Assembly: GCA_964486045.1 (NCBI GenBank)
Contig: CAZALK010000020.1
Coordinates: 16,985 to 80,984, forward strand
DNA length: 64,000 nt
Direction of reading: 5' to 3'
Origin: an uncultured archaeon
GTDB lineage: Archaea > Asgardarchaeota > Lokiarchaeia > Sigyniarchaeales > SOKP01
Below the pieces are notes generated by a model that worked only from the letters and a program-made list of their open reading frames with translations, ran no database searches and was not told where the DNA came from. Below, in pieces: positions 26,152-56,857 of the stretch. The position numbers were made by a program, and so were the translations under genes. Every line of letters begins with the position of its first letter. Position 1 is the stretch's first letter.

Positions 26152-26916
26152 ATGGAGGGTAATATTTTCGACCAGATTGCTAAAGATTATCACTCAAAAA
26201 GGAGAAAACCGTGGAAACCTCTTGAATTCTTTTTTAATTATTTAAAAAGGAAGAAATATTTGTTTAGAGGGATGTCTCTAGATTTGGGTTGTGCAAATGG
26301 TAGAAATTTCAAGATTTTAGGAAATTATCCCAAAAAGCTAATAGGAATTGATAATTCACTTGAATTCCTAAAATTAGCTCAGATTGGTTTAAAGAACTCA
26401 GAAAAATATCTAAAATCAGAATCAAATTTAATTCAAGTTCTTCTTGCAGATTTAAATTACCTACCAATTAGAAAAAATTCAATCCAAAATATTTTCTCCA
26501 TCGCGACTATTCACCATATTAAGCATAAATCTACACGAAATAAACTCATATCTCAATTTAATCATATTTTAAAAATAGATGGAAACCTTTTAATAACTGT
26601 GTGGCGTAAATGGCAAAAAAAATATCGAAGTTATTTTCTTTTAGATGGAATTAAAAGGAGTTTTAGTTTTAAACATAAGAAGCAACAAAAAATTGATGGT
26701 TTGAGTCAGTTTGGGGATAAATATATACCATGGACGCTTTCAGAAGAAAATATGATATTTAGTAGATATTATCATTTTTTTTCCAAACGAGAGGTTAAGA
26801 ATTTATTAAAGAACTTTACGATAAAAGAATTTAAAATTATGGGTGGTCCAAATAATCATGATAACTTTTTTATTTTAGCCCAAAAAAAAATTATCAGTGG
26901 CATTCAATCGAGTTGA
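26152..26916 (+). CDS. class I SAM-dependent methyltransferase, Trm9/ALKBH8-MT-like
   Basis: IFDQIAKDYHSKRRKPWKPLEFFFNYL followed by LDLGCANGRN (motif I) resembles the Trm9 N-terminal block (HFS-TR-x-x-WP...FL) plus the SAM motif. It ends in TGA. Confidence 0.55.
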   Translation: MEGNIFDQIAKDYHSKRRKPWKPLEFFFNYLKRKKYLFRGMSLDLGCANGRNFKILGNYPKKLIGIDNSLEFLKLAQIGLKNSEKYLKSESNLIQVLLADLNYLPIRKNSIQNIFSIATIHHIKHKSTRNKLISQFNHILKIDGNLLITVWRKWQKKYRSYFLLDGIKRSFSFKHKKQQKIDGLSQFGDKYIPWTLSEENMIFSRYYHFFSKREVKNLLKNFTIKEFKIMGGPNNHDNFFILAQKKIISGIQSS

Positions 26917-27385
26917 GGGTTTTCAACAGACTTGGTTTAAAATTATCATACATGCTTTCTATTACTGCCGTATGAATATTTATTAGTCTCTCAGATATTT
27001 CGCAAAAGAAAATACCATGTATTACCCTTTCAACAAAATATCTTTTTCTTATCATTTTCCTTCGATGCCCATACCAGAATGTAAATTCATGGGCCATTAG
27101 CCAATCTCTTTCTTTTTTAGTTACTACAATGCCTATTGCATTATAGGTTTCAATGCACCTTTCAACTTCTTTATAATAGAAAAGATTTGCTCTATCTTTT
27201 TTTTCCCAATTTAATTCAATTGTGGAATCTGGACCCCAAATCTCATCATAGTCATTTTGAGAATGAAATATAATTGAACCATTGTTTTCATCACCTTCAA
27301 ATTCTGTTTCTTTAAACCAAATCGCCATCTTATTAATTGATAAATTGCATTCCGATTTTTTGTATACATAAAAACTATATTCCAT
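26894..27385 (-). CDS. hypothetical protein
   Basis: 163-aa ORF. Its 3' end overlaps the convergent methyltransferase gene by 23 nt. Confidence 0.4.
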   Translation of the reverse strand: MEYSFYVYKKSECNLSINKMAIWFKETEFEGDENNGSIIFHSQNDYDEIWGPDSTIELNWEKKDRANLFYYKEVERCIETYNAIGIVVTKKERDWLMAHEFTFWYGHRRKMIRKRYFVERVIHGIFFCEISERLINIHTAVIESMYDNFKPSLLKTLNSIECH

Positions 27386-27531
27386 GGTTGAACCTACTCA
27401 GGTTGATTGTTAATTGAATAAGGAAACTTATTTCTAAAATATATTTAGTATTTATAAAGCTTCTGGTACAAGAAAATACCTAAAAATAAAATAGGTATAA
27501 AGGTTGAAACTACTAATTAAAATAATAGATT

Positions 27532-28143
27532 TTACCGCTTGAGCATTTCCTTCCCTTCTTCAATCCATTTTGCTATTCTTTCTAGAGAAACACCACTGAT
27601 TAAAGATACTAATTCTTCAGGATTCTCCTTAATTAACTCCTCCACAGATCCAACGCCAAGTTCTGCAAATTTCTTTGCTGTAGCAGCACCTAAACCGGAT
27701 AGATCAGTTAAACTTGTTCCTGCTTCTTCAGTTTTAACTTTCTCTCTTTTTACAGGTTTTTTCTTCTCTTTTTTTACAGTATCTGCTTTTTTCTTCACTG
27801 CGGGTATTTTAGGGGCTTTTTCAATAATTTTTTTGGTTTTTACTTCAGGTTTCTCTTTCTTAGGTTTGAAAGGGGTATTCTTCTTCTCTTTTTTTACGAA
27901 GGGTTTCCTTTTTTTTTTCTTCTTCTCAGTTACCTTAAGTGACTTAAGTTTTTCAACGTTTTCTGGATAGGAAGAACGTCTAAAAAAATCAATTTTAATA
28001 TTTAATTCCTTTAATTGACTAATATATCTTCCTGAATCCTTTATTTCCCTCAGAGAGTAACCTTCACCCTTTCTCAAAAAAGACTCTCTCGAGGGACTTT
28101 TTACTAGGGCAGTGAGTTCTATTTTATTCCCCATGATTAACAC
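27532..28143 (-). CDS. ribosomal protein L13e-like domain fused to a Lys-rich linker and a C-terminal helix-hairpin-helix domain
   Basis: The N-terminus VKSPSRESFLRKGEGYSLREIKDSG...IKIDFFRRSSYPENV fits the eL13 pattern (GRGFSL-EL-x-aG ... vD-RR). The middle is K-rich. The C-terminus LSGLGAATAKKFAELGVGSVEELI is an HhH. Confidence 0.55.
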   Translation of the reverse strand: MLIMGNKIELTALVKSPSRESFLRKGEGYSLREIKDSGRYISQLKELNIKIDFFRRSSYPENVEKLKSLKVTEKKKKKRKPFVKKEKKNTPFKPKKEKPEVKTKKIIEKAPKIPAVKKKADTVKKEKKKPVKREKVKTEEAGTSLTDLSGLGAATAKKFAELGVGSVEELIKENPEELVSLISGVSLERIAKWIEEGKEMLKR

Positions 28144-28269
28144 ATGATTATTATAATACTAAGGTAATTTTGATAGACTTAGAAACCATTTATTTTTTTC
28201 TATTTATATCAAATGCCTTAAAAACAGTTTAGATAGGTATTTTCAGAATCAAACTTATCACGAAGATCT

Positions 28270-28908
28270 TTATTCCCTTTTAACGATGTCTAATTGTTCT
28301 AATTTTTTAAGTGCATCAGCAATCTCATTTCTTTTCGAGCTTAACATTCTCGAAATTTTCAGAGCTGAATTTTTTCCAGTGCATAATAAAGCAATTTGAA
28401 AATCATAATCGGTTATTAAACCCATTGTCAAGACTTTTTCTAATACACTTTTTGCGACCAGCAATTCAGGAAATCCTTCTGCGATTTTTCCTCCCCTTGT
28501 TAGATTTTCAACATCAGCATTTAATGTTTGAAATCGACCCTTTTCCGTTGTAGCTCTAAAGACTTTAAGATCTGACTGATGCTTTTTCCAAAATCTTTTT
28601 GCAATTTTATGAATTACATCCTTTATTTTTTCTGTATCATCATCTGCGTCAGAAATCGAACAAAATAAGACTCTAGATAAAGGATGATAATAAATTAGAA
28701 CAGTTGAATCTTCAGATTCTATAACTCTATTCATCTCATTCACTCGTCTTCCCTTTACCATTGATTCTTGAATGATATCGATTGTTTTACTAATCACATT
28801 AAAAAATCCAGTTAAAATATCATCTTGGATTTTTTTTAATTCTTTAAAGGTTGATTCAAAAAGTGAAATTCCATTATCTCCATCGATTAAATAAACTTTA
28901 TATATCAA
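28270..28908 (-). CDS. longin-like (SNARE-like fold) domain + C-terminal winged-helix protein
   Basis: 212 aa with a TTG start. IYKVYLIDGDNGISLFESTF..ILTGFFNVISKTIDII..TVLIYYHPLSRVLFCSISD follows a beta-beta-alpha-beta-beta-beta-alpha pattern. It aligns with the cytoplasmic tail of the 18788..23590 protein. The C-terminal ALKISRMLSSKRNEIADALKKLEQLDIV is wHTH-like. Confidence 0.55.
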   Translation of the reverse strand: MIYKVYLIDGDNGISLFESTFKELKKIQDDILTGFFNVISKTIDIIQESMVKGRRVNEMNRVIESEDSTVLIYYHPLSRVLFCSISDADDDTEKIKDVIHKIAKRFWKKHQSDLKVFRATTEKGRFQTLNADVENLTRGGKIAEGFPELLVAKSVLEKVLTMGLITDYDFQIALLCTGKNSALKISRMLSSKRNEIADALKKLEQLDIVKRE

Positions 28909-29059
28909 ATTTTCAACAAATTTGCACTATATTCTTCTTATAAAAGTAATAAAATCTCATCCTTTTGAATTTTTATTAAATCAAGTTTCTAAATAATTAA
29001 AATTAAAAGCTGAAAATTTATACATTTTATAAAAACTATTTAAATTCACGATTTCAAGA

Positions 29060-30307
29060 ATGAAAACAAAGAAAGTATTTCTTTTTATGTTCTTATTTTT
29101 TTTTCCGGTATCAATTTCAGCTTATCCGAACTTACCGACACCATCAACAATGTTGGATAATTTTCCATTCACATCTTCCCCTGATTATGGTGTTTCTAAT
29201 TATAATATTACCCAAAGTGTAAAATATAATATAGAAATCAACTTTACTTTAACTCACAAATCAGGTCCTGGTTCCTATTATTTTAAATTTGCACGATTAA
29301 ATAACAGAATGCCAAACTCAACAAAGTCTCAATATACTCCCCCTTATCAAGAGAGTAATCTTTTATATAATAATATAACAGGATACTCAGTGCTTAATAT
29401 GGACCATAATGACCAATTTAATAACACTTATGACTCTTTTAACGCAACATTACTACCCGAAGAAACAGTTACATTAAGTCAACACTATATCACTGAAGTA
29501 AATGCTATCAATTTTCTGGAAGTTGATATGGCAGATATTGAGGTCTATAATACGTCAGATGAAATATTCTCTTTATATTCTAACAATACAGAACTATATT
29601 ATGAGCGAAACAATTCCGTTTTAGTTGATTTGTCTAATAACCTTGTAGATCCAGCTGATAATCCGATAGAAAAAGCGCAGAAGATTTTTAACTGGGTTAT
29701 AAGCAACCTTGAATATAATGGAGAGTTACCTGCTCAAGAAAAGGGAGCCCTTTGGGCTTATAATAATCTAAAGGGAGATTGTAGTGAATATTCGAGTTTG
29801 ATGATTACATTATTACGTATTCAAGGTATACCAGCTCGCAAAATAACCGGATTCTTAGTATCTAATAACCTCGCTTTGAGACCTCAAGCAGGTAATTCTT
29901 GGAACTTCTATGTCTCAGATTCAGGCGATAACATGTTAGGACATGCTTGGATTGAATATTATGTTCCTAATATTGGCTGGATTGCAAGTGATCCTACTTG
30001 GAAAACAGGTTATTTTAATAATATTGATTATCTTCGGTTCCATCTCAATGTAGGAGCGAACATCTTTTTTCCTCCTGATAGTACTGTGAGTGAGTTTGCT
30101 AATCCCATTTTTGCTTATTCTGGAGGAGCAACCTTTACATTTAGTTATGACATTGATATAACCGTTATAGAGTCGAACCTGTTACCGTTGGAGCAATTCC
30201 CATTATTGTTTGCTATATTTATTGGGGTAGGGGCTGCCGCTGTGCTATTTACACTGATTATTATAATAAAAAGAAGTCGCAAGAAAGATTTTTTTGAATA
30301 TGAATAA
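29060..30307 (+). CDS. secreted/membrane-anchored transglutaminase-like cysteine protease-fold protein
   Basis: It has a signal peptide (KKVFLFMFLFFFPVSISA). The Cys-His-Asp core is GDCSEYSSL...GHAWIEYY...ASDPT. A C-terminal TM anchor is followed by KRSRKKD, and an oligo-T run follows the stop. Confidence 0.8.
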   Translation: MKTKKVFLFMFLFFFPVSISAYPNLPTPSTMLDNFPFTSSPDYGVSNYNITQSVKYNIEINFTLTHKSGPGSYYFKFARLNNRMPNSTKSQYTPPYQESNLLYNNITGYSVLNMDHNDQFNNTYDSFNATLLPEETVTLSQHYITEVNAINFLEVDMADIEVYNTSDEIFSLYSNNTELYYERNNSVLVDLSNNLVDPADNPIEKAQKIFNWVISNLEYNGELPAQEKGALWAYNNLKGDCSEYSSLMITLLRIQGIPARKITGFLVSNNLALRPQAGNSWNFYVSDSGDNMLGHAWIEYYVPNIGWIASDPTWKTGYFNNIDYLRFHLNVGANIFFPPDSTVSEFANPIFAYSGGATFTFSYDIDITVIESNLLPLEQFPLLFAIFIGVGAAAVLFTLIIIIKRSRKKDFFEYE

Positions 30308-30339
30308 ATAATTCCAAGATTTAGTTTTCTTTTTTTTTT

Positions 30340-31806
30340 CTAAATATAAGTATGGATTAACTCCAGCAGATTTTTTGAGAAATCTGGTAAGTTTTTCTCT
30401 ATTTTTTTAATTTCAAGAGATTTTTCAATAAACATTAGTAAATATAAGTTATATTTTTCAACTTGGATTTTTTTAAAAACAACTTTCTTAGAGTCGTCAG
30501 CAATTCCGGTGGATACTAAAAAATCTTGTTTCAATACTTTGAATTCCTTAAAGGTTTTATACAAGGTTTGAAAGTGAGGTGCTGAGATTTCAAAAACCCT
30601 GTCAGATATCTCAGATTTTGAAAAATTGGATAATATTATTCCATTTTCGTTAAGTAATAAAATTGCGTCTGAATTCGTTTTTCTTGCGAATTGCTTCAAT
30701 TGATTTCTGAATAATTCTCGATTAGGACTTAACTGAGAAAGTCCATATGAATAAGCAGTAATAAGACTCCAATGGTCGAAAATACTAGTTTGGAATATTT
30801 TAGTTAAAAATCGATCAGATCTCTTTTCTACCTCATCAGCAATAATTTCTAAATTTTTAAATATTTCTTTTGAACCCTTCAGATCAGGATCGAATTTATT
30901 TAAACACACAACTATGGGCGGAAATTCATCTAATTCGACTAATATTTTCGAAATTCTTTGGAAAAGATTTAATGCTTCTTCAATTCTCTCTACATCTTGT
31001 ATATCAATAAAGAAGAAAATTAGATCAACATTATATAAATAGACTTGACTTTGCTCAAGAAATCTTTCTAAATATTTTTTTTGGCCACCTATATCCCATA
31101 GAGAGATTAACGAGTTCTGTTCTTCAAATATATTCTCTTCTGTTCTTTCAACACCTTTAGTAGGTAATGATTTGATAATTTCTGAATATTTCTTTCTGAT
31201 TCCATAAAGAAAACTTGATTTACCAGCCTTATCTAATCCTGTCAATAATATTTTAATTTGTCTTTTTGGAGAAAAAGGATCTTTTAATTCTTTTGTAAAC
31301 TCGAATAGTTCTTCTCTAATATCATCCATTATTCGTTTCTGGTCATTAAATTCTTTTACATTCTGAATTTGTGTAGCTGTTTTATCGATTATAATCCTTA
31401 AATATTTCATATTTTCATAAAAAAAAACCTTATCTTCTTCGTCAATTAATACAGTTATTGTCGCAGCTAGTGCTTGACCGCGTGCTTTTTCATCAGGGAT
31501 AAGAAAAAAATAAGTTAAGCCATTCAATTTTAAATCAGGAAAAGGAAGAATTCCAAAGTAGTTAACTCCTATGTCTGATCCCTGAGAATTTTGATAAACT
31601 GAATCACCCATAAGCAAACTAATAGTTTTCATAGCTATTAGAAGTCCTGATTTCTCTTCTAGGTTAGAAGGCCATATTATTCTAGGTGTTGGGCCTTTTT
31701 CATCAAAAATACTTAAAACAACCGCTTTTATTAGATTGGATTTTTTGTCACCTGTATCGTTTCCTTTCATCTTCTTCTTATTCGAATTTGAGTCGGTTTT
31801 TGCCAA
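30340..31806 (-). CDS. three-domain GTPase: N-terminal longin-like domain + Rag/Gtr-like G domain + C-terminal roadblock-like domain
   Basis: 488 aa. The N-domain covers about aa 25-145 (LIKAVVLSIFDEKGPTPRIIWP...ILPFPDLKLNGLTYFFLI). G1 is LLTGLDKAGKSS, G3 is WDIGGQ, G4 is NKFD and G5 is QTSIFDHWSLITAYS..LSP (as in Rag TSIWD...LIP). About 125 aa of alpha/beta C-domain follow. It ends in TAG. Confidence 0.7.
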   Translation of the reverse strand: MAKTDSNSNKKKMKGNDTGDKKSNLIKAVVLSIFDEKGPTPRIIWPSNLEEKSGLLIAMKTISLLMGDSVYQNSQGSDIGVNYFGILPFPDLKLNGLTYFFLIPDEKARGQALAATITVLIDEEDKVFFYENMKYLRIIIDKTATQIQNVKEFNDQKRIMDDIREELFEFTKELKDPFSPKRQIKILLTGLDKAGKSSFLYGIRKKYSEIIKSLPTKGVERTEENIFEEQNSLISLWDIGGQKKYLERFLEQSQVYLYNVDLIFFFIDIQDVERIEEALNLFQRISKILVELDEFPPIVVCLNKFDPDLKGSKEIFKNLEIIADEVEKRSDRFLTKIFQTSIFDHWSLITAYSYGLSQLSPNRELFRNQLKQFARKTNSDAILLLNENGIILSNFSKSEISDRVFEISAPHFQTLYKTFKEFKVLKQDFLVSTGIADDSKKVVFKKIQVEKYNLYLLMFIEKSLEIKKIEKNLPDFSKNLLELIHTYI

Positions 31807-31969
31807 TGTATTCCCTTATCTCTTGCATTAAAATAAGTGATGTTAGATTTTTATTATTATCTCTAACTTATAGTTTAATAAAATCTTGAAATCACATTAA
31901 TAGATCCAAAATAACAATTATTATTAAATCATTACTTTTCTCTCTGAAAAACTGATAATTAAAAAAAAA

Positions 31970-33778
31970 TTATGAAAAAAATCCCAATCTTACTAGTTTA
32001 GACGGTAAAAAGATTCTATTTACAAAATCCTCTAGAGTTAGATTACTTTTTGTAAGTTCAGTTAAAGATATATATTCAATTGCACCATTTTGGATAAACT
32101 GGTGGTAAACCTCTTGATTTTTAACTTTTTGTATTACATTAATTTCAGAATCTTCCCGAAAATGAGCAGTATTTGTATAATATGACATTTTTCCTTTGAA
32201 TTGGGGAATCGCTACTCCTGGAAAATGTTTTAGATCTAATTTTGCAAATCTGGAGGGTGATTTTTCAGAGGTATTTTCACTTAATACATGGCGAATATTA
32301 CTATTCTTAGATAGCTCTTTACAGACTTGATTCATCTCAATTAGGATTTTTTTGCCAAAAGTGAATACATCTGAACCTTCGTGCAGCTCGTAATCTGTTA
32401 AGAATTTAATAGCTTCGTTTAAACCAATAAAACTTATTGATAAGTATTGATTTTCTAAATTATAGAGATTCTGATTCTTAATATTAGTATTAAATAACGG
32501 CAAGTGATTTGACTGTAACCTTCTTCTTATGATATCATATTTTTTTAGTAAAATCCTAGAAGATAAATTCATTTTAGCTTTGAGTATCTCTAAGAAATCA
32601 TCTTCATCCTTACTCAGATAAGCAAAGCGAGGAAGGTTCAAACAAACCTCTTGAAGCATCCCTTGGTTATCATAACTAGGATAAGAAATTTTTTTACCTT
32701 TTTCATCATTGAAAAGGTGAGCATTTGAATTTAATAAAATTGGAGTTCTCATTGTTAATGTTTCATCCCAGACTTTATGATAAGCATCACCATACTTATT
32801 TAACAGTGTTTCATTAATATAAATTTCATGTTTGGGAGTATTAAATGGATTTTTATTATCATCACCTCCTTTAAAATTATAGGTAAAGGAGTTAAATATC
32901 TTCAGACAATCCTCATAATAATCTTCATAACATCCCTCGATTTTTCCAAAGGGTCCAACTGCAGGGTATTTTAATAAATATTTAACAATAGTAGGGTGAG
33001 TCATAATAGTGGTTGGAGGAATTGTCCGACCGGTTATTACTGAAAAATAATTCATTTCATAAATGAAATTCCTTATTATATGATTTAAATCTTGTTCATT
33101 AGATTCTTTAACATATGGTGCTAAGTAGATATTAATATTATTATATCCTTGACTTCCACAAATTTCATTTTGAGTTAATAATAACCATTTAATTAAATGA
33201 TCGCAGGCTTCCCTTAAGTTTTTTGCTGGTTTAAGTTTGCAACAAGGAAGATTTTTATTTAGAGGTGGTAAGCCATTTTCTAAAACGATACTGGGATCCC
33301 AAATTTGAGTCAGTGGTTTTAAATCAAAATATCGCAACTTATGAATATGGATGTCTCCGTATAAATGAGCCTTGGATTCTTCATTGGTGAGAATTCTTAA
33401 ATGAGCATATTCTTCAGAGATTCGATTTGAAGCCCAATTATGTATTTTCTCGGGGTTTATCACAATTTTTGGGTAATCAACCAAACCCTTTTCGAGAATT
33501 TCTTCATAATCCATTAATGGCATTCCAATTCTAGTGTATAATTTACGTTCATTTTCAAAATGTTGTTCAGAAAGTATTGAGCATACAATTTCTCTTATAT
33601 GCGGTCCAGAAAGAAATTTGATGCCAGAACTAATGATCCTTCTTACTACAAGTTCAGTAATCCTCTTAGCTTTGTCTTCACTCAAGTTAGTCTCTTTAAC
33701 AATGCTTTCAAAAATTATCGGGGAGTTAAAATCTGTTAAATCCCCTTCAGTTCTGAAAACTTTTGGTAATAAATCCAT
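31970..33778 (-). CDS. class III (anaerobic) ribonucleotide reductase NrdD-like protein with N-terminal ATP-cone
   Basis: 602 aa. The N-terminal KVFRTEGDLTDFNSPIIFESIVKETNLSEDKAKRITELVVRRI is an ATP-cone pattern. The C-terminal YYTNTAHF...GAIEYISL resembles the NrdD blocks. The extreme C-terminus is LVRLGFFS. Confidence 0.5.
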   Translation of the reverse strand: MDLLPKVFRTEGDLTDFNSPIIFESIVKETNLSEDKAKRITELVVRRIISSGIKFLSGPHIREIVCSILSEQHFENERKLYTRIGMPLMDYEEILEKGLVDYPKIVINPEKIHNWASNRISEEYAHLRILTNEESKAHLYGDIHIHKLRYFDLKPLTQIWDPSIVLENGLPPLNKNLPCCKLKPAKNLREACDHLIKWLLLTQNEICGSQGYNNINIYLAPYVKESNEQDLNHIIRNFIYEMNYFSVITGRTIPPTTIMTHPTIVKYLLKYPAVGPFGKIEGCYEDYYEDCLKIFNSFTYNFKGGDDNKNPFNTPKHEIYINETLLNKYGDAYHKVWDETLTMRTPILLNSNAHLFNDEKGKKISYPSYDNQGMLQEVCLNLPRFAYLSKDEDDFLEILKAKMNLSSRILLKKYDIIRRRLQSNHLPLFNTNIKNQNLYNLENQYLSISFIGLNEAIKFLTDYELHEGSDVFTFGKKILIEMNQVCKELSKNSNIRHVLSENTSEKSPSRFAKLDLKHFPGVAIPQFKGKMSYYTNTAHFREDSEINVIQKVKNQEVYHQFIQNGAIEYISLTELTKSNLTLEDFVNRIFLPSKLVRLGFFS

Positions 33779-33970
33779 GATGAGGTTATTATCGATTTTT
33801 TTTAGTTTTAATATTTACCTTTGAATTATTATATTCAAAAACCTTAAAAAAAAAAATTATTAATGGATTACATTAGATGTTAATTTTACTTTTTACATGA
33901 TTGTACTCAATCTTTAAATAGATCCATAAGGAGCATTTAGTTTGAGTACTAAAGCTTTTTATAGAATTTC

Positions 33971-34798
33971 TTGACTCTCTTTATGTTATTTTATAGGGAG
34001 AACGTAAATTATTATATGTCAAAATTATACTCATATTCCTCTTTACAACGATTTTTTAGCAGTATTTATTATATCTTGCAGGAGATTGATACAAAAATTG
34101 TTGAAGTCTGGTGTGAAATTCCAAGGATTACATTTTTTAAGAATCTTAGTAATTCTAAGCTTAGAGATTTCTTAGGGAAGTTTGAATTTATCTCCATTAA
34201 GAAGGGGAACTATATTTACTATGTTGTAATTAATAAAATATTATTTATCATCGATTGCATCAAATATTTACAATTTGACATTAAAAATCTTTCTGAAATT
34301 TTAGACTATAGTGGATTTGAGACATTAATAAAAGAGATTTTATCTAAAAACAGTTATCGGTCAATTACAAACTTCCGATTTTCAGATAAAAATAAGGTAG
34401 GATCAGAAAATTCACAGAAAAGGTATGAAATTGATGTTATAGGAATTTATTATAATTTTATTTTAATTATAGATGCAAAACAATGGAAACATAGAGATAC
34501 GTTTGGTTCATTAAATAAAGCAGCAACAAAGCAATATCATAGATTATTAGCCCTAAAAAGAAATCCAGGAGTCTTCGCAAAACTTATCTCTGAAATACTA
34601 GGTGAAAAACCCAATAAAAAAAAACACTTTCCATTAATATTAATTCCCGTTATTGTAACACAAGAAAATAATTATATTAAATTAAATGATGATCAGGTAC
34701 CACTTGTTTCGATTTATGAGTTAAATGCTTTTTTAGATGAATTACCAAACAACTTACACTATTTTAAAACCGTTCAAGTAGATAGAGTTTTTTTATAG
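33971..34798 (+). CDS. hypothetical protein with PD-(D/E)xK nuclease-like core
   Basis: YEIDVIGIYYNFILIIDAKQWK provides a D...(D)-x-K motif in a beta-strand context. The likely start is the ATG at 34016. It ends in TAG. Confidence 0.4.
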   Translation: MTLFMLFYRENVNYYMSKLYSYSSLQRFFSSIYYILQEIDTKIVEVWCEIPRITFFKNLSNSKLRDFLGKFEFISIKKGNYIYYVVINKILFIIDCIKYLQFDIKNLSEILDYSGFETLIKEILSKNSYRSITNFRFSDKNKVGSENSQKRYEIDVIGIYYNFILIIDAKQWKHRDTFGSLNKAATKQYHRLLALKRNPGVFAKLISEILGEKPNKKKHFPLILIPVIVTQENNYIKLNDDQVPLVSIYELNAFLDELPNNLHYFKTVQVDRVFL

Positions 34799-34868
34799 AA
34801 AAAATATTAATTTTCACCTATTTGTGAAAAATAATTAATCAATTAAAAAGATGCATCAACCCAAGATG

Positions 34869-35954
34869 TTATTTTTTTAATCCTAAATAATGTTTTACTT
34901 GTTTTTTTATAAGATTCATAGCAATAGAAATAATACCACTCTTAACTTGAGGATGTGAAAACAGTATTAAAATCATATCTTTAAGACTCGAAGTTTCTAG
35001 ATCAAGAAATGCCATATCTAAAACTCCCTCAGTACCTCTCACTGATATCGATCTTAAAGCTCCAGCACTTAAACCATCGATGATATCCGCACTTATCATT
35101 GAAAGATTTATCCCTATTGTACCAAATAAGGATTCCGATATTCTACTTGAAATAGCTGACGCTAACATTGTCCCATCTGTTTTTATGATTGCTGATGCCT
35201 CAATTTTTGAATCTAAAGTTATCAATTCTTTTAATATCTCATTCATCGAAGCTGGTGGTAATTTATTTTTTGGTTCTTTCTGAGAAGTTGATTTAGGTTC
35301 TTTTAGTTTTATTTTATTTACGATAATTTTCTTTGATAGAAAACCAAGAACCTCCGACATGTCTTTCTCTAGTTTCTTCTGTTTTATAATAGCAAGATCT
35401 GAGTCTACAGTTTTAAGGGGGAGCGGAGTTGTAGATGGTTTAGGTTTCTTAATTTCAACTTCGAGAACAGATTTTTTAAGTTCTTTTAGTGCATCTGAGA
35501 TAACTCCATTAGATTTAGGGATGAGAGAAATGAATTCTTTTTTGTCTGAGAGAATAGTACCTTTAAATGGTTTCGGGGTTATTTCTTGTAATATTGGGGG
35601 GGTTTTTTCTTCTAAATTGTGTTTCGTTTCTAGAGGTATTTCTGTAAGGGAATCCGATTCAATTTCTTCATTATCTTCTATTGGAATATCACCAAGCTTT
35701 GAAAAATCACTTAGTTTCTCTTCTTCTATCGGTATCTCATGTAATTCTAATTCTTCTGGTTCTAGATCTTCCGGTACTTTAGGTTCTTCTATTATTTGAG
35801 TAATAGGAACTTTTTTTGCTTTTTCTTCTTTAACGGTTTTAGGTTTTTTAGGTCTAGAGGTTCTAGTAGAAATTGGTAGTAATGCCCCACATGTTCTACA
35901 GATACGAGTTTTTTTCTCATTATTTGTTGTCCCACAGTTATTACAAATTATTAT
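34869..35954 (-). CDS. zinc-ribbon + acidic linker + Roadblock/LC7 (MglB/LAMTOR-like) domain protein
   Basis: The track gives only 34869..35360 (the roadblock part: ASAIIKTDGTMLASAIS...ISVRGTEGVLDMAFL). The frame stays open upstream to the TAA at 35960..35958, which I checked codon by codon. That extension encodes ICNNCGTTNNEKKTRICRTCG (CxxC..CxxC) plus an E/P/K-rich linker. No ATG/GTG/TTG lies in the extension; an ATA at 35954..35952 is 8 nt after GGGGGAG. Confidence 0.65.
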   Translation of the reverse strand: MIICNNCGTTNNEKKTRICRTCGALLPISTRTSRPKKPKTVKEEKAKKVPITQIIEEPKVPEDLEPEELELHEIPIEEEKLSDFSKLGDIPIEDNEEIESDSLTEIPLETKHNLEEKTPPILQEITPKPFKGTILSDKKEFISLIPKSNGVISDALKELKKSVLEVEIKKPKPSTTPLPLKTVDSDLAIIKQKKLEKDMSEVLGFLSKKIIVNKIKLKEPKSTSQKEPKNKLPPASMNEILKELITLDSKIEASAIIKTDGTMLASAISSRISESLFGTIGINLSMISADIIDGLSAGALRSISVRGTEGVLDMAFLDLETSSLKDMILILFSHPQVKSGIISIAMNLIKKQVKHYLGLKK

Positions 35955-36190
35955 TGATTATTCTCCCCCAGTATGATTTTAGCACTAATACTACAGTAAA
36001 TTTTAGAAATTTTTAGTTATTAGTTTTATAGTGTTTAATTTATAAATAGAAATTTGATATTATTAATATTAGCAACTTGAATTTGCCAATTTAATTTGTA
36101 CTTTTAATGAATATTTTTAAAATTCCTAATTCTAATTACAGTCATTAAAGTTGAATAAAAAATAGTCATAAATTATTTTAGAAACTGCTA

Positions 36191-37165
36191 TTATTTATAG
36201 AGGATCTCTTTCAATATTTTTGCGAAAGCTTCAAAGTCTTCTTTGTTAAAAACAGGATTATCTTTTAATAGAAGTAAGTAATAGGGTGTGGACTCTTTTC
36301 GTAACGAAATCTGTTTAAACATGAAATTTTTCCCATATCTTTGTACAATCATTCTTTCCTCGTACTTTTTCTCCAAAACGCTTGTGGATTGAAAGGAATC
36401 ATGAAGAGTGAGAAAATATGGGGTTGAAGCGGTGAGTAGGTGCCGAGTCTCATCATCCTTATAATAAGATCCAATTATTAGTGAATTGTCGTCAATTACT
36501 ACTACCCCACCGGAATCTACCTTTTTAGCAAATTCTACAATTGTTTTTTCAATTAATTCAGATTTTGGATAGAGACTTAAAAGGATTTCAGACATGGCTG
36601 CTATTATTGATGAGAATTCATAAATGGAGGTTTCATAGAAATAAATTTCCTTATAATCTGTAGCGTTTCTTATTAGTTCCTTTAAATCTATTATAAGATT
36701 TTCCATTTCATTTAAGGCACCCCTCTTTAAAGCAGGATCATATTTATGAAGGAAAACATAGATTGGTGGTTCAATTTCCAATTTGTTAAACTGCTCAATA
36801 ACATCTTTAAAATAACTTATTGCTTCAGGTATTCGCGGTTTATTCTGGATATCAATAACATAGATGGCAATTTCAGTTCCATCAAAGTATTTATTTGGCT
36901 TTTTTAAATAGGAGATCCTATAGCTAACCTGCCCGCCTAAATCCCATTCACTTATCTCTTTTCCTAGAAAATCGAATATTCTCCTTTGCGCTCCTCTCGT
37001 AGGAGATAATACAGCAATTTTTGAGAATTCTCTTTGGAGAGATAAAATTATGCTTGTCTTGCCTGCATCATCTAGCCCCGTAAATAAAATCTTTGAAGAT
37101 TCGGGTTCAGCTTCTAGATCATCTTTTTTTAAATACAAGATTGATTGTTTAAGATTTTTCTCCAT
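36191..37165 (-). CDS. Rag/Gtr-like small GTPase (G domain + C-terminal roadblock-like domain)
   Basis: 324 aa. G1 is ILFTGLDDAGKTS, G3 is EWDLGGQ, G4 is FLHKYD (His-Lys-x-Asp as in RagA HKMD) and G5 is YETSIYEFSSIIAAMSEILLSLYP (compare RagA [21 protein letters not shown]). A roughly 125-aa C-domain follows (VVVIDDNSLIIGSY...). Confidence 0.75.
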   Translation of the reverse strand: MEKNLKQSILYLKKDDLEAEPESSKILFTGLDDAGKTSIILSLQREFSKIAVLSPTRGAQRRIFDFLGKEISEWDLGGQVSYRISYLKKPNKYFDGTEIAIYVIDIQNKPRIPEAISYFKDVIEQFNKLEIEPPIYVFLHKYDPALKRGALNEMENLIIDLKELIRNATDYKEIYFYETSIYEFSSIIAAMSEILLSLYPKSELIEKTIVEFAKKVDSGGVVVIDDNSLIIGSYYKDDETRHLLTASTPYFLTLHDSFQSTSVLEKKYEERMIVQRYGKNFMFKQISLRKESTPYYLLLLKDNPVFNKEDFEAFAKILKEILYK

Positions 37166-42862: not shown

Positions 42863-44362
42863 ATGGAAAGATTATTTGAATCTTCGCTAATTAAAGGATT
42901 TATATTTAGTGCCTACGGGGAACTAGGACCACAACCCGTTTATACATGGCCTAATTATTATACCGAAAAAGAAATAAAACAAATTAAAACTGAAGAAAAG
43001 AAATCTCTAATTTTATCATTAAGGGATGTCACTCAAATCTCAATAAAGAATCTCAGCTTATTTATAAGTGACAGAGAATTCTCACAAGAAAAAGACTTCC
43101 AAAATCTAAGATATTTCGCTATTTTACCCTATCCTGATTTTAAAGCAACATCTCTCACTTATTTTCATTATATTGAAAATGGTACTTTTGACCTACCTGT
43201 CGCCACCGCATTTTCAATATTAGTTGAGGAATATAGAAGAAGTTTCTTATACAATAATATAAACAGAATTAAACCGATAGTATCTGAATTCTTTACTCGG
43301 TTTGATCAAAAATTACTTGAGAATTATCCTCCTAAAGAAGAAATAGAAGAATTTTTTATTGAGTTGTTTAAACAGCTTAATGAGATTGAAAAAAATCCAT
43401 CAACCCCGATCACCTCTCACCGAAAATTAAAACTTATTTTTGCAGGTTTAGATGATTCTGGTAAAACCAGCTTCCTTTTAAGTGTTGATCGTAAATATAG
43501 TAAACTTATTGGGTTAAAACCAACTACAGGAGCGAGTATCAAATCAATTGAAGCTCTAGGTGCTACAATCTTTTTGTGGGACTTAGGTGGCCAGTTGAAA
43601 TTTCGAAGAAAGTATATAGATAAGGCTGAGATTTACTTATATGAAGCTGATTTAATTTTCTATTTTATTGACGTAAGAAATGAAAGTAGATTTGAAGAAA
43701 GCATAGAATATCTTCTTAGCATAAAAAAAGTATTAGGAGATTTTAAACAAAATACTCCAATTGTCTACATATTATCAAAAGGAGATTCTGATATTATAAA
43801 TACAGGAGAAATCAAAAATAATATTGAAAATGTGAAGAAAAAACTATTTGAAATTACTCCTAAAGAATCCCCTGAATTATATGTCACCAGTATCTTTCAA
43901 ATTTTTACAATTCTAAGGGCATTTTCTTCTGGAATTTCAAAATTAAGCCCTAATAGAAATTTAATAAATCATAACCTTAGAAATTTCTCTCTTAAAACAA
44001 AGGCTTTTTTAACATTACTCTTAAGTGAAGATGGTTTAGTTTTAGCAGACTTCTATTCCTCAAAAGCAAAGAAACTAACAAAGATTCCCAAATCTGAGGA
44101 ACTCATAAATGTTTTTGAGGTAACTGCACCTCAATTTGCCATGCTATTTAAAATCTTCTCAAGATTCAAAGCTTTAAAAGAAGAAGAAGCGATATTTAAA
44201 GTGTCTGATTCTGTAATCCTTTTTAAAAGGATCAAAGTTGTTGAGGAAAACATGTTCATTCTATTTCTGGTTGATAATGAGAAAAGAAAGGAAAAAATCA
44301 ACATTAAATTGCCCGTTTTCTTAGAGCAAACAAAAGAGTTATTGTTAAGATATATTGCATAA
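42863..44362 (+). CDS. three-domain GTPase: N-terminal longin-like domain + Rag/Gtr-like G domain + C-terminal roadblock-like domain (paralog of 30340..31806)
   Basis: 499 aa. The N-domain reads LIKGFIFSAYGELGPQPVYTWP...ILPYPDFKATSLTYFHYI. G1 is LIFAGLDDSGKTS, G3 is WDLGGQ, G4 is LSKGD and G5 is VTSIFQIFTILRAFSSGISKLSP. The C-domain reads LTLLLSEDGLVLADF.... Confidence 0.7.
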   Translation: MERLFESSLIKGFIFSAYGELGPQPVYTWPNYYTEKEIKQIKTEEKKSLILSLRDVTQISIKNLSLFISDREFSQEKDFQNLRYFAILPYPDFKATSLTYFHYIENGTFDLPVATAFSILVEEYRRSFLYNNINRIKPIVSEFFTRFDQKLLENYPPKEEIEEFFIELFKQLNEIEKNPSTPITSHRKLKLIFAGLDDSGKTSFLLSVDRKYSKLIGLKPTTGASIKSIEALGATIFLWDLGGQLKFRRKYIDKAEIYLYEADLIFYFIDVRNESRFEESIEYLLSIKKVLGDFKQNTPIVYILSKGDSDIINTGEIKNNIENVKKKLFEITPKESPELYVTSIFQIFTILRAFSSGISKLSPNRNLINHNLRNFSLKTKAFLTLLLSEDGLVLADFYSSKAKKLTKIPKSEELINVFEVTAPQFAMLFKIFSRFKALKEEEAIFKVSDSVILFKRIKVVEENMFILFLVDNEKRKEKINIKLPVFLEQTKELLLRYIA

Positions 44363-53439: not shown

Positions 53440-54492
53440 TTGAAAACCATGGAAAGACAAATAATTAAAGCTGTAGTATACAGTAATTTAGATGAAGAAT
53501 TGGGTCCCGATCCTAAAGCTTTTACACCTGATAATTTTCCTCTAGTAAATTTAATGCTTATTAGTATGAAAACCTTTGCCGTTCTTACTGGTGAGAAAGG
53601 ATTTATACCGGAGTCACTAGTTATTCTTCCGTTTCCATCACTTAAACTAAAGGGTTTAATTAAGTATATTAATTGGGAGGACCCAAAGAAACGAGGGGGT
53701 TTTGGCCAATCTAATATTGCGATATTTTTCCAAGAAATGGATGATGCAATTTTTTATAAGTATTTAAAGGAACTCTCAGCTCCGTTTAACGATGTAGCCC
53801 AAAACATCGCATTTTTAGAAAAATCTAATGCTCCTAAGGAAGATTATATTAATGAGTTAATAAATCTTCAAAATGCATTAACCGAAATTTTAGAAGAATT
53901 AAGAAGCATAGAGCTTTCGAAGTCAAACGTTGAGTCGTTGGAAGGGAGAATTAAGGATAGGAATTTGATAGATTTTCAATTTAAAATTATTCTTGTAGGG
54001 GATCCAACGGTAGGAAAAACAAGTCTAATTCTAAGATATACTGATAATGCTTTTAGGCGAGCATATGTTTCAACTATGGGTGTTCATGTTTCAAATAAAA
54101 TATTTAAAGCTGAAGATTCTGCGATTATCCAGCTTGTTTTATGGGACATAGGAGGTCAAGAAAGATTTAAAATAATGAGGCAACAGTTTTATCAAGGATC
54201 TGATGCAGTATTTATAATTTTTGACCTTACTAATCCCGATTCATTTAGAGGTGTGCCTAATTGGTATTCAGATATACAAAAACTATTAAAATTAAATAAA
54301 GAAGATACTCTAGGTTTCCTAGTTGGAAATAAGAGGGATTTAGATAAGGACATAAAAATAAAATCTGAAGAGGCTCAAAATCTGGCCGAACAGTTCAATT
54401 TAGAATATCTTGAAACTTCAGCACTCTCAGGAGAAAACGTTTATGCCGTTTTCAGCAATATCGCCAATTTACTCTATGAATCGAGAAAATAA
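53440..54492 (+). CDS. N-terminal longin-like domain + Rab/Ras-like small GTPase
   Basis: 350 aa. The N-domain IIKAVVYSNLDEELGPDPKAF...LVILPFPSLKLKGLIKYI belongs to the same family as the N-domains of the Rag-like proteins. G1 is LVGDPTVGKTS and switch I is YVSTMGV. G3 is WDIGGQERF, G4 is GNKRDL and G5 is ETSALSG. The probable start is the ATG at 53449. Confidence 0.75.
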   Translation: MKTMERQIIKAVVYSNLDEELGPDPKAFTPDNFPLVNLMLISMKTFAVLTGEKGFIPESLVILPFPSLKLKGLIKYINWEDPKKRGGFGQSNIAIFFQEMDDAIFYKYLKELSAPFNDVAQNIAFLEKSNAPKEDYINELINLQNALTEILEELRSIELSKSNVESLEGRIKDRNLIDFQFKIILVGDPTVGKTSLILRYTDNAFRRAYVSTMGVHVSNKIFKAEDSAIIQLVLWDIGGQERFKIMRQQFYQGSDAVFIIFDLTNPDSFRGVPNWYSDIQKLLKLNKEDTLGFLVGNKRDLDKDIKIKSEEAQNLAEQFNLEYLETSALSGENVYAVFSNIANLLYESRK

Positions 54493-55807: not shown

Positions 55808-56857
55808 ATGATGAAAGAGATTATTAAATCTATTGTCTACACCTCAATGGATGAGAGGTTAGGACCGAGTCCGCATTTATGGTTGCCATTAGATTTACCC
55901 GAAGATATTCGAATGGGAGTAAGCATAAAATCAATTACGATGCTTACAACAGATCAAGGAATTATCCCTAAATCATTAGTAATCATGCCCTTCCCTTCTT
56001 TTGGACAAAAAGGATTGATAAAATATATTGAACGTGCAGATGATTCTCGCCGCGGAGGTATAGCATTATCATCAATTACACTATTATTTGATGAAGCCGA
56101 TGATCTTATTTTCTATAAATACTTGGATTACCTTGAAACTGCGTTTTCTAAAAGCGCCCAGAAAATTATTGAATTAGAAAATCAGAATGCAGAAAGCGTT
56201 GAGATTTATGCAGAGATAAATATCCTTCGAAAAAACCTCACAGAAATTTTAAATGATTTACAAAACAAAGAAAAATCAATTATTGAAGGAAAGGCGTTTC
56301 CTAAAGAAGAAACTGATAAAGAGTTAGTTGGATTTCATTCCAAAATTATTGTATGTGGAGATCCATCTGTAGGTAAAACCAGTACTATCCTACGATTTAC
56401 TGATAACGCTTTCATCCGTACTTATATCCCTACTTTAGGTGTAAGTATTTCTGAGAAAACTATCAAAATAAAAGAAGAGTATGTGAATTTAATCTTTTGG
56501 GATATAGCTGGACAAAGTAAATTTGAAATGATGAGGAGACATTTTTATCAAGGTGCAGAAGCGGTAATTGTTATATTTGATCTAACAAATCGTAAGTCAT
56601 TTGAAAGTGTTTCAGGTTGGTATAAGGACATAAAGAGGTACATCGAAATCTACCAAAACACTTTAATAGGGTTTGTTTTAGGAAATAAAGAGGATTTAGT
56701 TGGTGAGAGGAAAGTTTCAACTGCAGAGGCTAGTAGTGTAGCCAAAAGTCTAAACATTGGATACGTCGAGACTTCAGCTAAGACTGGTAAAAATGTTGAA
56801 CAGTTATTTTATAGAATAGCAGATTCTTTATTAAAAACAAAAAAAAAAAATGATTAA
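55808..56857 (+). CDS. N-terminal longin-like domain + Rab/Ras-like small GTPase (paralog of 53440..54492)
   Basis: 349 aa. The N-domain reads IIKSIVYTSMDERLGPSPHLW...LVIMPFPSFGQKGLIKYI. G1 is VCGDPSVGKTS and switch I is YIPTLGV. G3 is WDIAGQSKF, G4 is GNKEDL and G5 is ETSAKTGKNV. There is no C-terminal Cys (no prenylation motif). Confidence 0.75.
   Translation: MMKEIIKSIVYTSMDERLGPSPHLWLPLDLPEDIRMGVSIKSITMLTTDQGIIPKSLVIMPFPSFGQKGLIKYIERADDSRRGGIALSSITLLFDEADDLIFYKYLDYLETAFSKSAQKIIELENQNAESVEIYAEINILRKNLTEILNDLQNKEKSIIEGKAFPKEETDKELVGFHSKIIVCGDPSVGKTSTILRFTDNAFIRTYIPTLGVSISEKTIKIKEEYVNLIFWDIAGQSKFEMMRRHFYQGAEAVIVIFDLTNRKSFESVSGWYKDIKRYIEIYQNTLIGFVLGNKEDLVGERKVSTAEASSVAKSLNIGYVETSAKTGKNVEQLFYRIADSLLKTKKKND

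Follow-up and report, generated by a model that had tools for sequence, protein, structure and literature searches.

A lokiarchaeal protein predicted to join a longin of the eukaryotic GAP class to a Rag-like GTPase and a roadblock-type domain

Described longin and Rag systems

Eukaryotic Rag GTPases have no N-terminal longin domain; longins are supplied on separate GTPase-activating proteins (GAPs). Here, we analyzed a stretch of 64,000 nucleotides from an uncultured archaeon of the Lokiarchaeia (GenBank assembly GCA_964486045.1, contig CAZALK010000020.1, positions 16,985 to 80,984 of the forward strand), referred to in the following as the window. One gene in this window encodes a longin domain, a Rag-like G domain and a roadblock-type C-terminal domain in a single polypeptide (longin-GTPase-roadblock, L-G-R). 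The comparable eukaryotic systems are the Rag/Gtr GTPases together with FLCN-FNIP2 (RagC/D), the GATOR1 subunits NPRL2-NPRL3 (RagA/B) and C9orf72-SMCR8 (Arf). With these, the focal protein shares the G domain and the roadblock C-domain, and its longin has a GP turn and a conserved arginine and belongs to the structural class of the eukaryotic longin GAPs. The eukaryotic pairs combine an arginine-bearing with an arginine-less longin and come with asymmetric GTPase paralogs, which resembles the pair formed by the focal gene and a paralog in the same window. However, the eukaryotic longins reside on separate proteins with DENN or other C-terminal domains, whereas the focal longin is fused in cis and has no DENN domain next to it. 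The focal protein also differs in having no Ragulator, mTOR or lysosome context, its similarity to the eukaryotic proteins stays below family thresholds, and its GAP activity is putative.

The three-domain architecture as such is already known (PMC10933270; bioRxiv 10.1101/2020.10.19.343400). Tran et al. (2024, Commun Biol, PMC10933270) described “LGR” longin-GTPase-roadblock proteins in Ca. Prometheoarchaeum syntrophicum MK-D1 (WP_147663355.1 and WP_147663364.1), and Liu et al. (bioRxiv 10.1101/2020.10.19.343400) mentioned Rag GTPases fused to longin as well as abundant NPRL2-like longins. The MK-D1 proteins agree with the focal protein in the order of the three domains, in the motifs GL-x-x-x-GKT, WD-x-x-G and TSIF, and in taxon. 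Their two genes are nine accession numbers apart, similar to the pair in the window. In the MK-D1 study the architecture was derived from AlphaFold2 models only, the longin was not classed as FLCN/NPRL2/SMCR8-type, and neither the GP motif nor the arginine was mentioned. The MK-D1 longin-GTPases were reported to have no intrinsic switch-I arginine and “may require GAPs”, and one GTPase class was described as “Rag-like but also close to Arf” (PMC10933270). The focal G domain fits this class, since on sequence inspection its P-loop and G3 are Arf-like while its G5 and C-domain are Rag-like.

Solved Lokiarchaeota structures cover parts of this architecture. LokiRagO (8yl2), a homotetrameric RagA-like GTPase, and LokiRagM (8zla/9m28) share the GTPase-roadblock (G-R) core, but their match to the focal protein begins only at residue ~169-181, and nothing in them corresponds to the longin. 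Conversely, 8yqg contains a longin of the same family with the GP motif, which is a dimer in the crystal, but this longin is fused to a roadblock domain and not to a GTPase. Longins with GP motif and arginine finger have been described in Asgard archaea, and their partner GTPase, ArfR or Rag/Gtr, was posed as a question (Traffic 2025, PMC12290439). These “Folliculin/SMCR8 longin domain-containing” proteins carry GP and arginine at equal positions and were proposed to be ancestral GAPs. They were described as longin proteins, mainly from Heimdallarchaeia, and the word “fused” is not in the paper, whereas the focal longin is covalently attached to a GTPase. In the literature searched, the GAP-class assignment of the fused longin, the arginine-plus/arginine-minus pair and the longin-Ras fusions described below appear to be unreported.

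Domains of the protein and class of its longin

The focal gene is located at 30340..31806 on the minus strand and is complete, with 488 codons, a stop codon and a TTG start, as judged from the list of open reading frames (ORFs) and from orthologs. All features of the protein named in this section lie on this strand. An initial annotation, made from the sequence alone, had read the ORF as a fusion of a longin-like, a Rag-like and a roadblock-like part, and the motifs that it quoted were all located in the protein: GPTPRIIWP at residues 38-46, ILPFPDLKLNGLTYFF at 86-101, GLDKAGKS at 190-197, WDIGGQ at 237-242, NKFD at 303-306 and TSIFDHWSLITAYSYGLSQLSP at 340-361. It had likened the N-terminal part to the longins of DENN/AVL9/FLCN-type regulators and had suggested AlphaFold and Foldseek as a check. 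This check recovered a longin-type sandwich, and a non-longin fold was not seen. An exhaustive HMMER search with residues 22-180 against 1.84 billion representatives identified 119 relatives of the N-domain. The AlphaFold2 model was based on an alignment of 58 diverse N-domains reaching down to 23% identity (A3), and it had a predicted local distance difference test score (pLDDT) of 90.4 and a predicted template modelling score (pTM) of 0.86. Its topology, b1-b2-a1-b3-b4-b5-a2-a3, is that of a longin, with strands at 5-14, 17-24, 62-68, 73-83 and 91-101 and helices at 30-41, 102-110 and 112-127 of the modelled segment (add 21 for full-length numbering).

A Foldseek search of this model against the PDB returned as first match 8yqg, the longin of a Lokiarchaeota Roadblock-Longin protein (E 1e-8, TM 0.72). 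Ranks 3-22 were almost all GATOR1/SEA (NPRL2/3), K. lactis Lst4, FLCN-FNIP2 and C9orf72-SMCR8, with probabilities of 0.99-1.00, and none of the top 50 matches was a TRAPP, SNARE or adaptin longin. These model-based matches support the predicted kinship, and we assign the N-domain (residues 24-175, 31282..31737) to the class of longins found in eukaryotic GAP complexes. Profile searches pointed in the same direction. The A3 profile detected 8yqg among the PDB sequences (“Longin domain”, 1.3e-20) and gave a weak match to residues 57-203 of SMCR8 (E 0.11), while neither the N-domain alone (phmmer) nor a profile of close orthologs (A2) matched any PDB sequence. The N-domains of all 12 orthologs searched matched Pfam Folliculin (PF11704) with 18.6-19.7 bits at a cutoff of 23.3 (best E 2e-4). 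No Pfam match to a DENN or an NPRL2 C-domain was found in the focal protein, where GTPase and roadblock stand after the longin. Coiled-coil matches of the A3 profile (spike HR1, syntaxin) turned out to be spurious; they arose via the last helix and were gone when 37 of the 58 domains were used after trimming ahead of this C-terminal helix (A4).

The GP motif, G38-P39 (31690..31695), is placed in the b1-b2 turn, and R109 (31480..31482), located in the b4-b5 loop as part of an A-R-G motif, is a candidate arginine finger. Among the 58 diverse N-domains G38 is invariant and P39, P46, K60 and R109 are kept in at least 90%, while no other position is kept; in the 37 trimmed domains the G, the P and the R are all invariant. 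The GP stands opposite G68-P69 of SMCR8 in the profile-PDB alignment, a weak match (E 0.1-0.4), and opposite the GP of NPRL2 in an hhalign alignment of low probability that used an approximate NPRL2 sequence. Likewise, in a low-probability hhalign alignment with an approximate FLCN sequence R109 faces R164 of the FLCN “LARG” motif, and the sub-threshold Folliculin match spans the arginine region. The catalytic arginine fingers of the eukaryotic proteins are FLCN R164, NPRL2 R78 and SMCR8 R147. As far as the alignments tell, R109 is likely equivalent to the catalytic arginine of GAP longins. The GP motif has been described as specific to GAP longins (C9orf72, SMCR8, FLCN, NPRL2) and absent in non-GAP longins (PMC12290439). 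The solved structure 8yqg represents an arginine-less state of this longin family.

The last longin helix is connected to strand 1 of the G domain by the linker KDPFSPKRQ (residues 175-183, 31258..31284; ortholog alignment). An alignment of 25 orthologs shows no change at K175, D176, P177, S179, R182 or Q183, and distant L-G-R proteins possess a comparable linker motif, P-x-[ST]-x-x-R-K. The following G domain (residues 184-362, 30721..31257) is Rag/Gtr-like, as the initial annotation had suggested. Pfam Gtr1_RagA matched residues 185-399 with 88.6 bits (5.4e-25, cutoff 22), ahead of Arf with 63.2 bits (2.8e-17). The best PDB sequence matches were 8yl2 (2.9e-32, residues 169-434) and 8zla/9m28 (2.6e-24), labelled in the Foldseek output as the Lokiarchaeota Rag-like GTPases LokiRagO and LokiRagM, followed by Arf, RagA and Gtr1. 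G1 (GLDKAGKS, 31216-31239), the switch-I residue T216, G3 (WDIGGQ, 31081-31098) and G5 (TSIFD, 30775-30789, of the Rag type TSI-x-D) vary little or not at all among orthologs, and G4 (30889-30900) reads NKFD in 99 of 120. Since G1, the switch-I threonine, DxxGQ, NKxD and TSIFD are near-invariant, the domain looks like a competent GTPase. The layout of the Arf family, a stand-alone G domain of ~180 aa with an amphipathic helix, was not found, as a 180-aa longin precedes the G domain and a 126-aa C-domain follows it.

The C-domain (residues 363-488, 30343..30720) is presumably a dimerisation module. Its roadblock-type fold, also part of the early proposal, is predicted by homology rather than by a model. 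The alignments to RagA and Gtr1 extend over ~220-240 residues and, as in the case of 8yl2, reach beyond the G domain into the roadblock C-domain; the C-domain alone matched residues 223-295 of 8yl2 (E 0.0045). The full-length AlphaFold2 model, built from 25 close orthologs (A1), had a pLDDT of 51, with values below 50 in the C-domain, and its domain packing is not usable. A Foldseek search with this low-confidence model returned LokiRagO, Gtr1, RagA/C and LokiRagM over 250-316 aligned columns, which is consistent support for the assignment.

A search of 5.8 billion proteins revealed more than 500 homologs of the focal protein. The best 120 of these are 458-490 aa long and 74-99% identical, originate from Promethearchaeota/Lokiarchaeia metagenome bins and, where named, are usually called “ADP-ribosylation factor-like protein”. 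Full-length orthologs with 64-89% identity were found in at least 80 Promethearchaeota genomes in a scan of GTDB species representatives. A full-length, 70%-identical ortholog also occurs on a contig labelled “Candidatus Nanopelagicaceae bacterium” (L046, DATKTW010000091.1), which probably is an Asgard contig that was mis-binned or mislabelled. Orthologs start with TTG in 19 of 20 cases and with GTG in the remaining one. A Shine-Dalgarno-like GGGAAT (31810..31815) is located 4 nt 5' of the focal TTG, and most of the 20 orthologs have GGGGAT or GGGAAT at equal spacing; the G+C content of the window is ~30%. The TTG start together with the GGGGAT-like motif suggests a deliberately weak or regulated translation initiation. 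The first 23 residues (31738..31806) form a lysine-rich tail (7 Lys, pLDDT ~30) that is probably disordered. Orthologs keep the composition of this tail and not its sequence, and it might be a polybasic tail binding membranes or nucleic acids.

The paralog, related fusions and neighboring genes

The window contains a second L-G-R gene (42863..44362, plus strand). It encodes a protein of 499 aa with 33% identity to the focal protein across all three domains and a Pfam Gtr1_RagA match of 2.5e-18. This paralog has the GP motif without the arginine, and the sequence at the finger position is E-N-G-T-F-D. We compared the motifs in 120 orthologs of each gene. The GP motif is present in 120/120 focal and 119/120 paralog sequences. 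The arginine, on the other hand, occurs in 119/120 focal orthologs and in none of the 120 paralog sequences, in which the loop is variable. G4 differs as well, being mostly NKFD in the focal group and SKGD in the paralog group. Since the paralog longin is intact without the arginine (120/120), the arginine is dispensable for the fold and selectively kept in one of the two paralogs. The distance between focal gene and paralog is 11 kb in the window and 7-8 kb in two other genomes; the pair is syntenic in L001 and L002. Judging from the overlap of both match lists, the two genes are apparently on the same contigs in more than 25 assemblies.

To survey the family, the 119 relatives were sorted by our own hidden Markov models and by motif checks, and only relatives with both motif positions covered by the N-domain alignment were counted. 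Proteins with longin, Arf/Rag-type G domain and C-domain (L-G-R, 460-580 aa) include nine with GP and arginine and seven with GP only. A longin fused to a Ras/Rab-type G domain (~340-360 aa) was found with both motifs in 28 cases and with GP only in none; one additional fusion of this type has neither GP nor arginine. Longins without a G domain, free-standing or in a roadblock-longin arrangement like 8yqg, number 34 with both motifs and four with GP only. The window holds four genes with a GP-type longin, namely the focal gene, its paralog and two longin-Ras fusions of ~350 aa with GP and arginine at 53440-54492 (plus strand, Pfam Ras 2.8e-45) and 55808-56857 (plus strand, Pfam Ras 6.2e-48). 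The longin-Ras architecture is present in ~28 representative clusters. The simplest reading of a repeated fusion of GP-type longins to Rag-like and Ras-like GTPases is that the longin and the fused G domain are functional partners.

The genes around the focal gene are arranged in the order G-R GTPase, roadblock protein, NERD protein, anaerobic ribonucleotide reductase (NrdD), L-G-R, transglutaminase-like protein (opposite strand), 212-aa protein, helix-hairpin-helix protein, 163-aa ORF and methyltransferase. This order of ~10 genes (26152-37165) is kept in 60-72 of 80 species loci. Median identities by tblastn are 72% for L-G-R, 67-70% for the small neighbors and 50% for the less conserved housekeeping protein NrdD. 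Common descent may be enough to explain the synteny, and we draw no functional tie to the transglutaminase. The initial annotation had placed the focal gene beside a transglutaminase-like ectoprotein and a longin-winged helix-turn-helix gene, and the first of these neighbors was found as described. The gene at 29060-30307 (plus strand) encodes a transglutaminase-core protein (Pfam Transglut_core 8e-25) with a hydrophobic, signal-like N-terminus and, at its C-terminus, a transmembrane helix with basic residues behind it. These sequence features are consistent with a surface-anchored ectoprotein. In 64 of 80 species this gene and the focal gene are convergent. The second neighbor, the 212-aa protein (28270-28908, minus strand; 68% conserved and syntenic), shows a weak C-terminal match to a TrmB-type winged helix-turn-helix, while its longin half was not confirmed, as a profile comparison with the GP-longin family revealed no relation.

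On the other side, ~5 kb from the focal gene and in conserved synteny, the gene at 36191-37165 (minus strand) encodes a Rag-like G-R protein of 324 aa without longin. It matches 8yl2 over its full length (7.5e-88) and, by this similarity, is possibly a LokiRagO ortholog. For the region 34869-35954 (minus strand) the ORF list contains only a 163-aa roadblock-like ORF, while the orthologs are ~361 aa long and comprise an N-terminal zinc ribbon (CxxC...CxxC), a low-complexity acidic linker and a C-domain that is presumably roadblock-like (no Pfam match). These orthologs start with TTG; the window has ATA at this position, after GGGGGAG, so that the start is either non-canonical or lost.

Possible roles of the fused longin

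We tentatively favor, with somewhat less than even confidence, a Rag-like switch with a built-in longin, which would contribute an arginine finger in the context of a dimer. Dimerisation would proceed via the roadblock domains and probably also via the longins, in the manner of Rag heterodimers and longin-GAP heterodimers. The longin would then contact one of the two G domains, that of its own chain or that of the partner, and R109 would enter the nucleotide pocket, serve as an arginine finger and accelerate GTP hydrolysis. The focal longin would act as a regulator, we infer, and GTPase and off-switch would be one polypeptide. The arginine-less syntenic paralog (42863-44362) is the most likely partner, as far as our comparison of the two genes goes. 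Such an asymmetric pair would be analogous to RagA/RagC plus FLCN/FNIP, NPRL2/NPRL3 or SMCR8/C9orf72.

Several observations weigh against a built-in arginine finger or against the pairing. The full-length model leaves R109 unplaced relative to the nucleotide pocket. All sequence-level links to FLCN, NPRL2 and SMCR8 are sub-threshold: the N-domains of the 12 orthologs did not reach the gathering threshold of Folliculin (PF11704), and hhalign of the family profile with human NPRL2 and FLCN N-termini (approximate sequences) yielded probabilities of 29% and 1.5%, although the motif alignments looked correct. The solved homolog 8yqg has the GP motif and not the arginine, with P-E-K where the family has R-G. 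The focal gene and its paralog are not in one operon, and longin-GTPases were modelled with AlphaFold2 as homodimers (Tran 2024, PMC10933270). Finally, the longins characterised so far are mostly platforms for guanine nucleotide exchange factors (GEFs), adaptors or scaffolds and not GAPs (PMC10933270, introduction).

The last point leads to the strongest alternative, which we nevertheless regard as on balance unlikely. The longin could be a non-catalytic platform with a role in dimerisation, as a scaffold, in effector binding or of the GEF type (TRAPP, Mon1-Ccz1, DENN), and GP and arginine would serve binding or structure. This would agree with the function of most characterised longins, with the dimer that the closest solved homolog 8yqg forms in the crystal without the arginine, and with the weakness of the sequence links to FLCN and NPRL2. 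Also, the arginine-minus paralog retains an entire longin, so the domain must have an arginine-independent function. However, the confident structural neighbors of the focal longin are almost only GAP-type longins, without TRAPP, SNARE or adaptin longins among them. The arginine is kept in 119/120 orthologs though it is dispensable for the fold, and the GP motif is reported as confined to GAP longins (PMC12290439), all of which speaks against a mere platform.

An improbable alternative is that the longin acts as a GAP in trans on a separate GTPase, such as the LokiRagO-like protein encoded at 36191-37165, and that the fused G and roadblock domains are a regulated anchor. A longin-less G-R gene is indeed found ~5 kb away in conserved synteny, in eukaryotes longin GAPs act in trans without exception, and the GP-type longin also exists free-standing and in roadblock-longin proteins. 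Against this stand the repeated independent fusion of the longin to Rag-like and Ras-like GTPases and the short, conserved linker between longin and G domain. That the three-domain ORF is an artefact can practically be discarded: a mis-assembly joining two genes, considered as a possible refutation at the outset, as well as a sequencing-error fusion or a pseudogene are excluded by the uninterrupted ORF of 458-490 aa in hundreds of independent assemblies, and the ORF is genuine because orthologs exist in at least 80 species with a conserved start and ribosome-binding motif, the synteny is conserved as well, and the three domains are also combined in the 33%-identical paralog and in relatives whose N-domains are 40-50% identical.

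A more specific form of the built-in arginine finger, which we consider rather unlikely, is an obligate asymmetric heterodimer of the arginine-bearing L-G-R protein and its arginine-less paralog as a single-complex archaeal precursor of RagA/RagC plus FLCN-FNIP or GATOR1. A roadblock dimer would hold two Rag-like G domains, and a longin heterodimer with a single arginine finger would sit on top. If so, the longin GAP modules would later have split off into the separate proteins of eukaryotes. The longin-Ras fusions would in that case mean that Asgard archaea generally used longin GAPs built into their GTPases, before the stand-alone GAP complexes of eukaryotes existed.

The question addressed by these data is how the regulation of small GTPases in eukaryotes (Rag-Ragulator-FLCN-GATOR, Arf/Rab GAPs) originated from Asgard parts. 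The partner question raised for the Asgard GP longins (PMC12290439) receives an answer from domain fusion, as the longin is joined covalently to a Rag-like GTPase and, in sister families, to Ras-like GTPases. The two paralogs, located close to each other and strictly split into arginine-plus and arginine-minus, parallel the eukaryotic pairs of a catalytic and a non-catalytic longin as well as the asymmetry of RagA/RagC. If the reading of a built-in GAP is true, the Rag switch would once have formed one unit with its off-switch.

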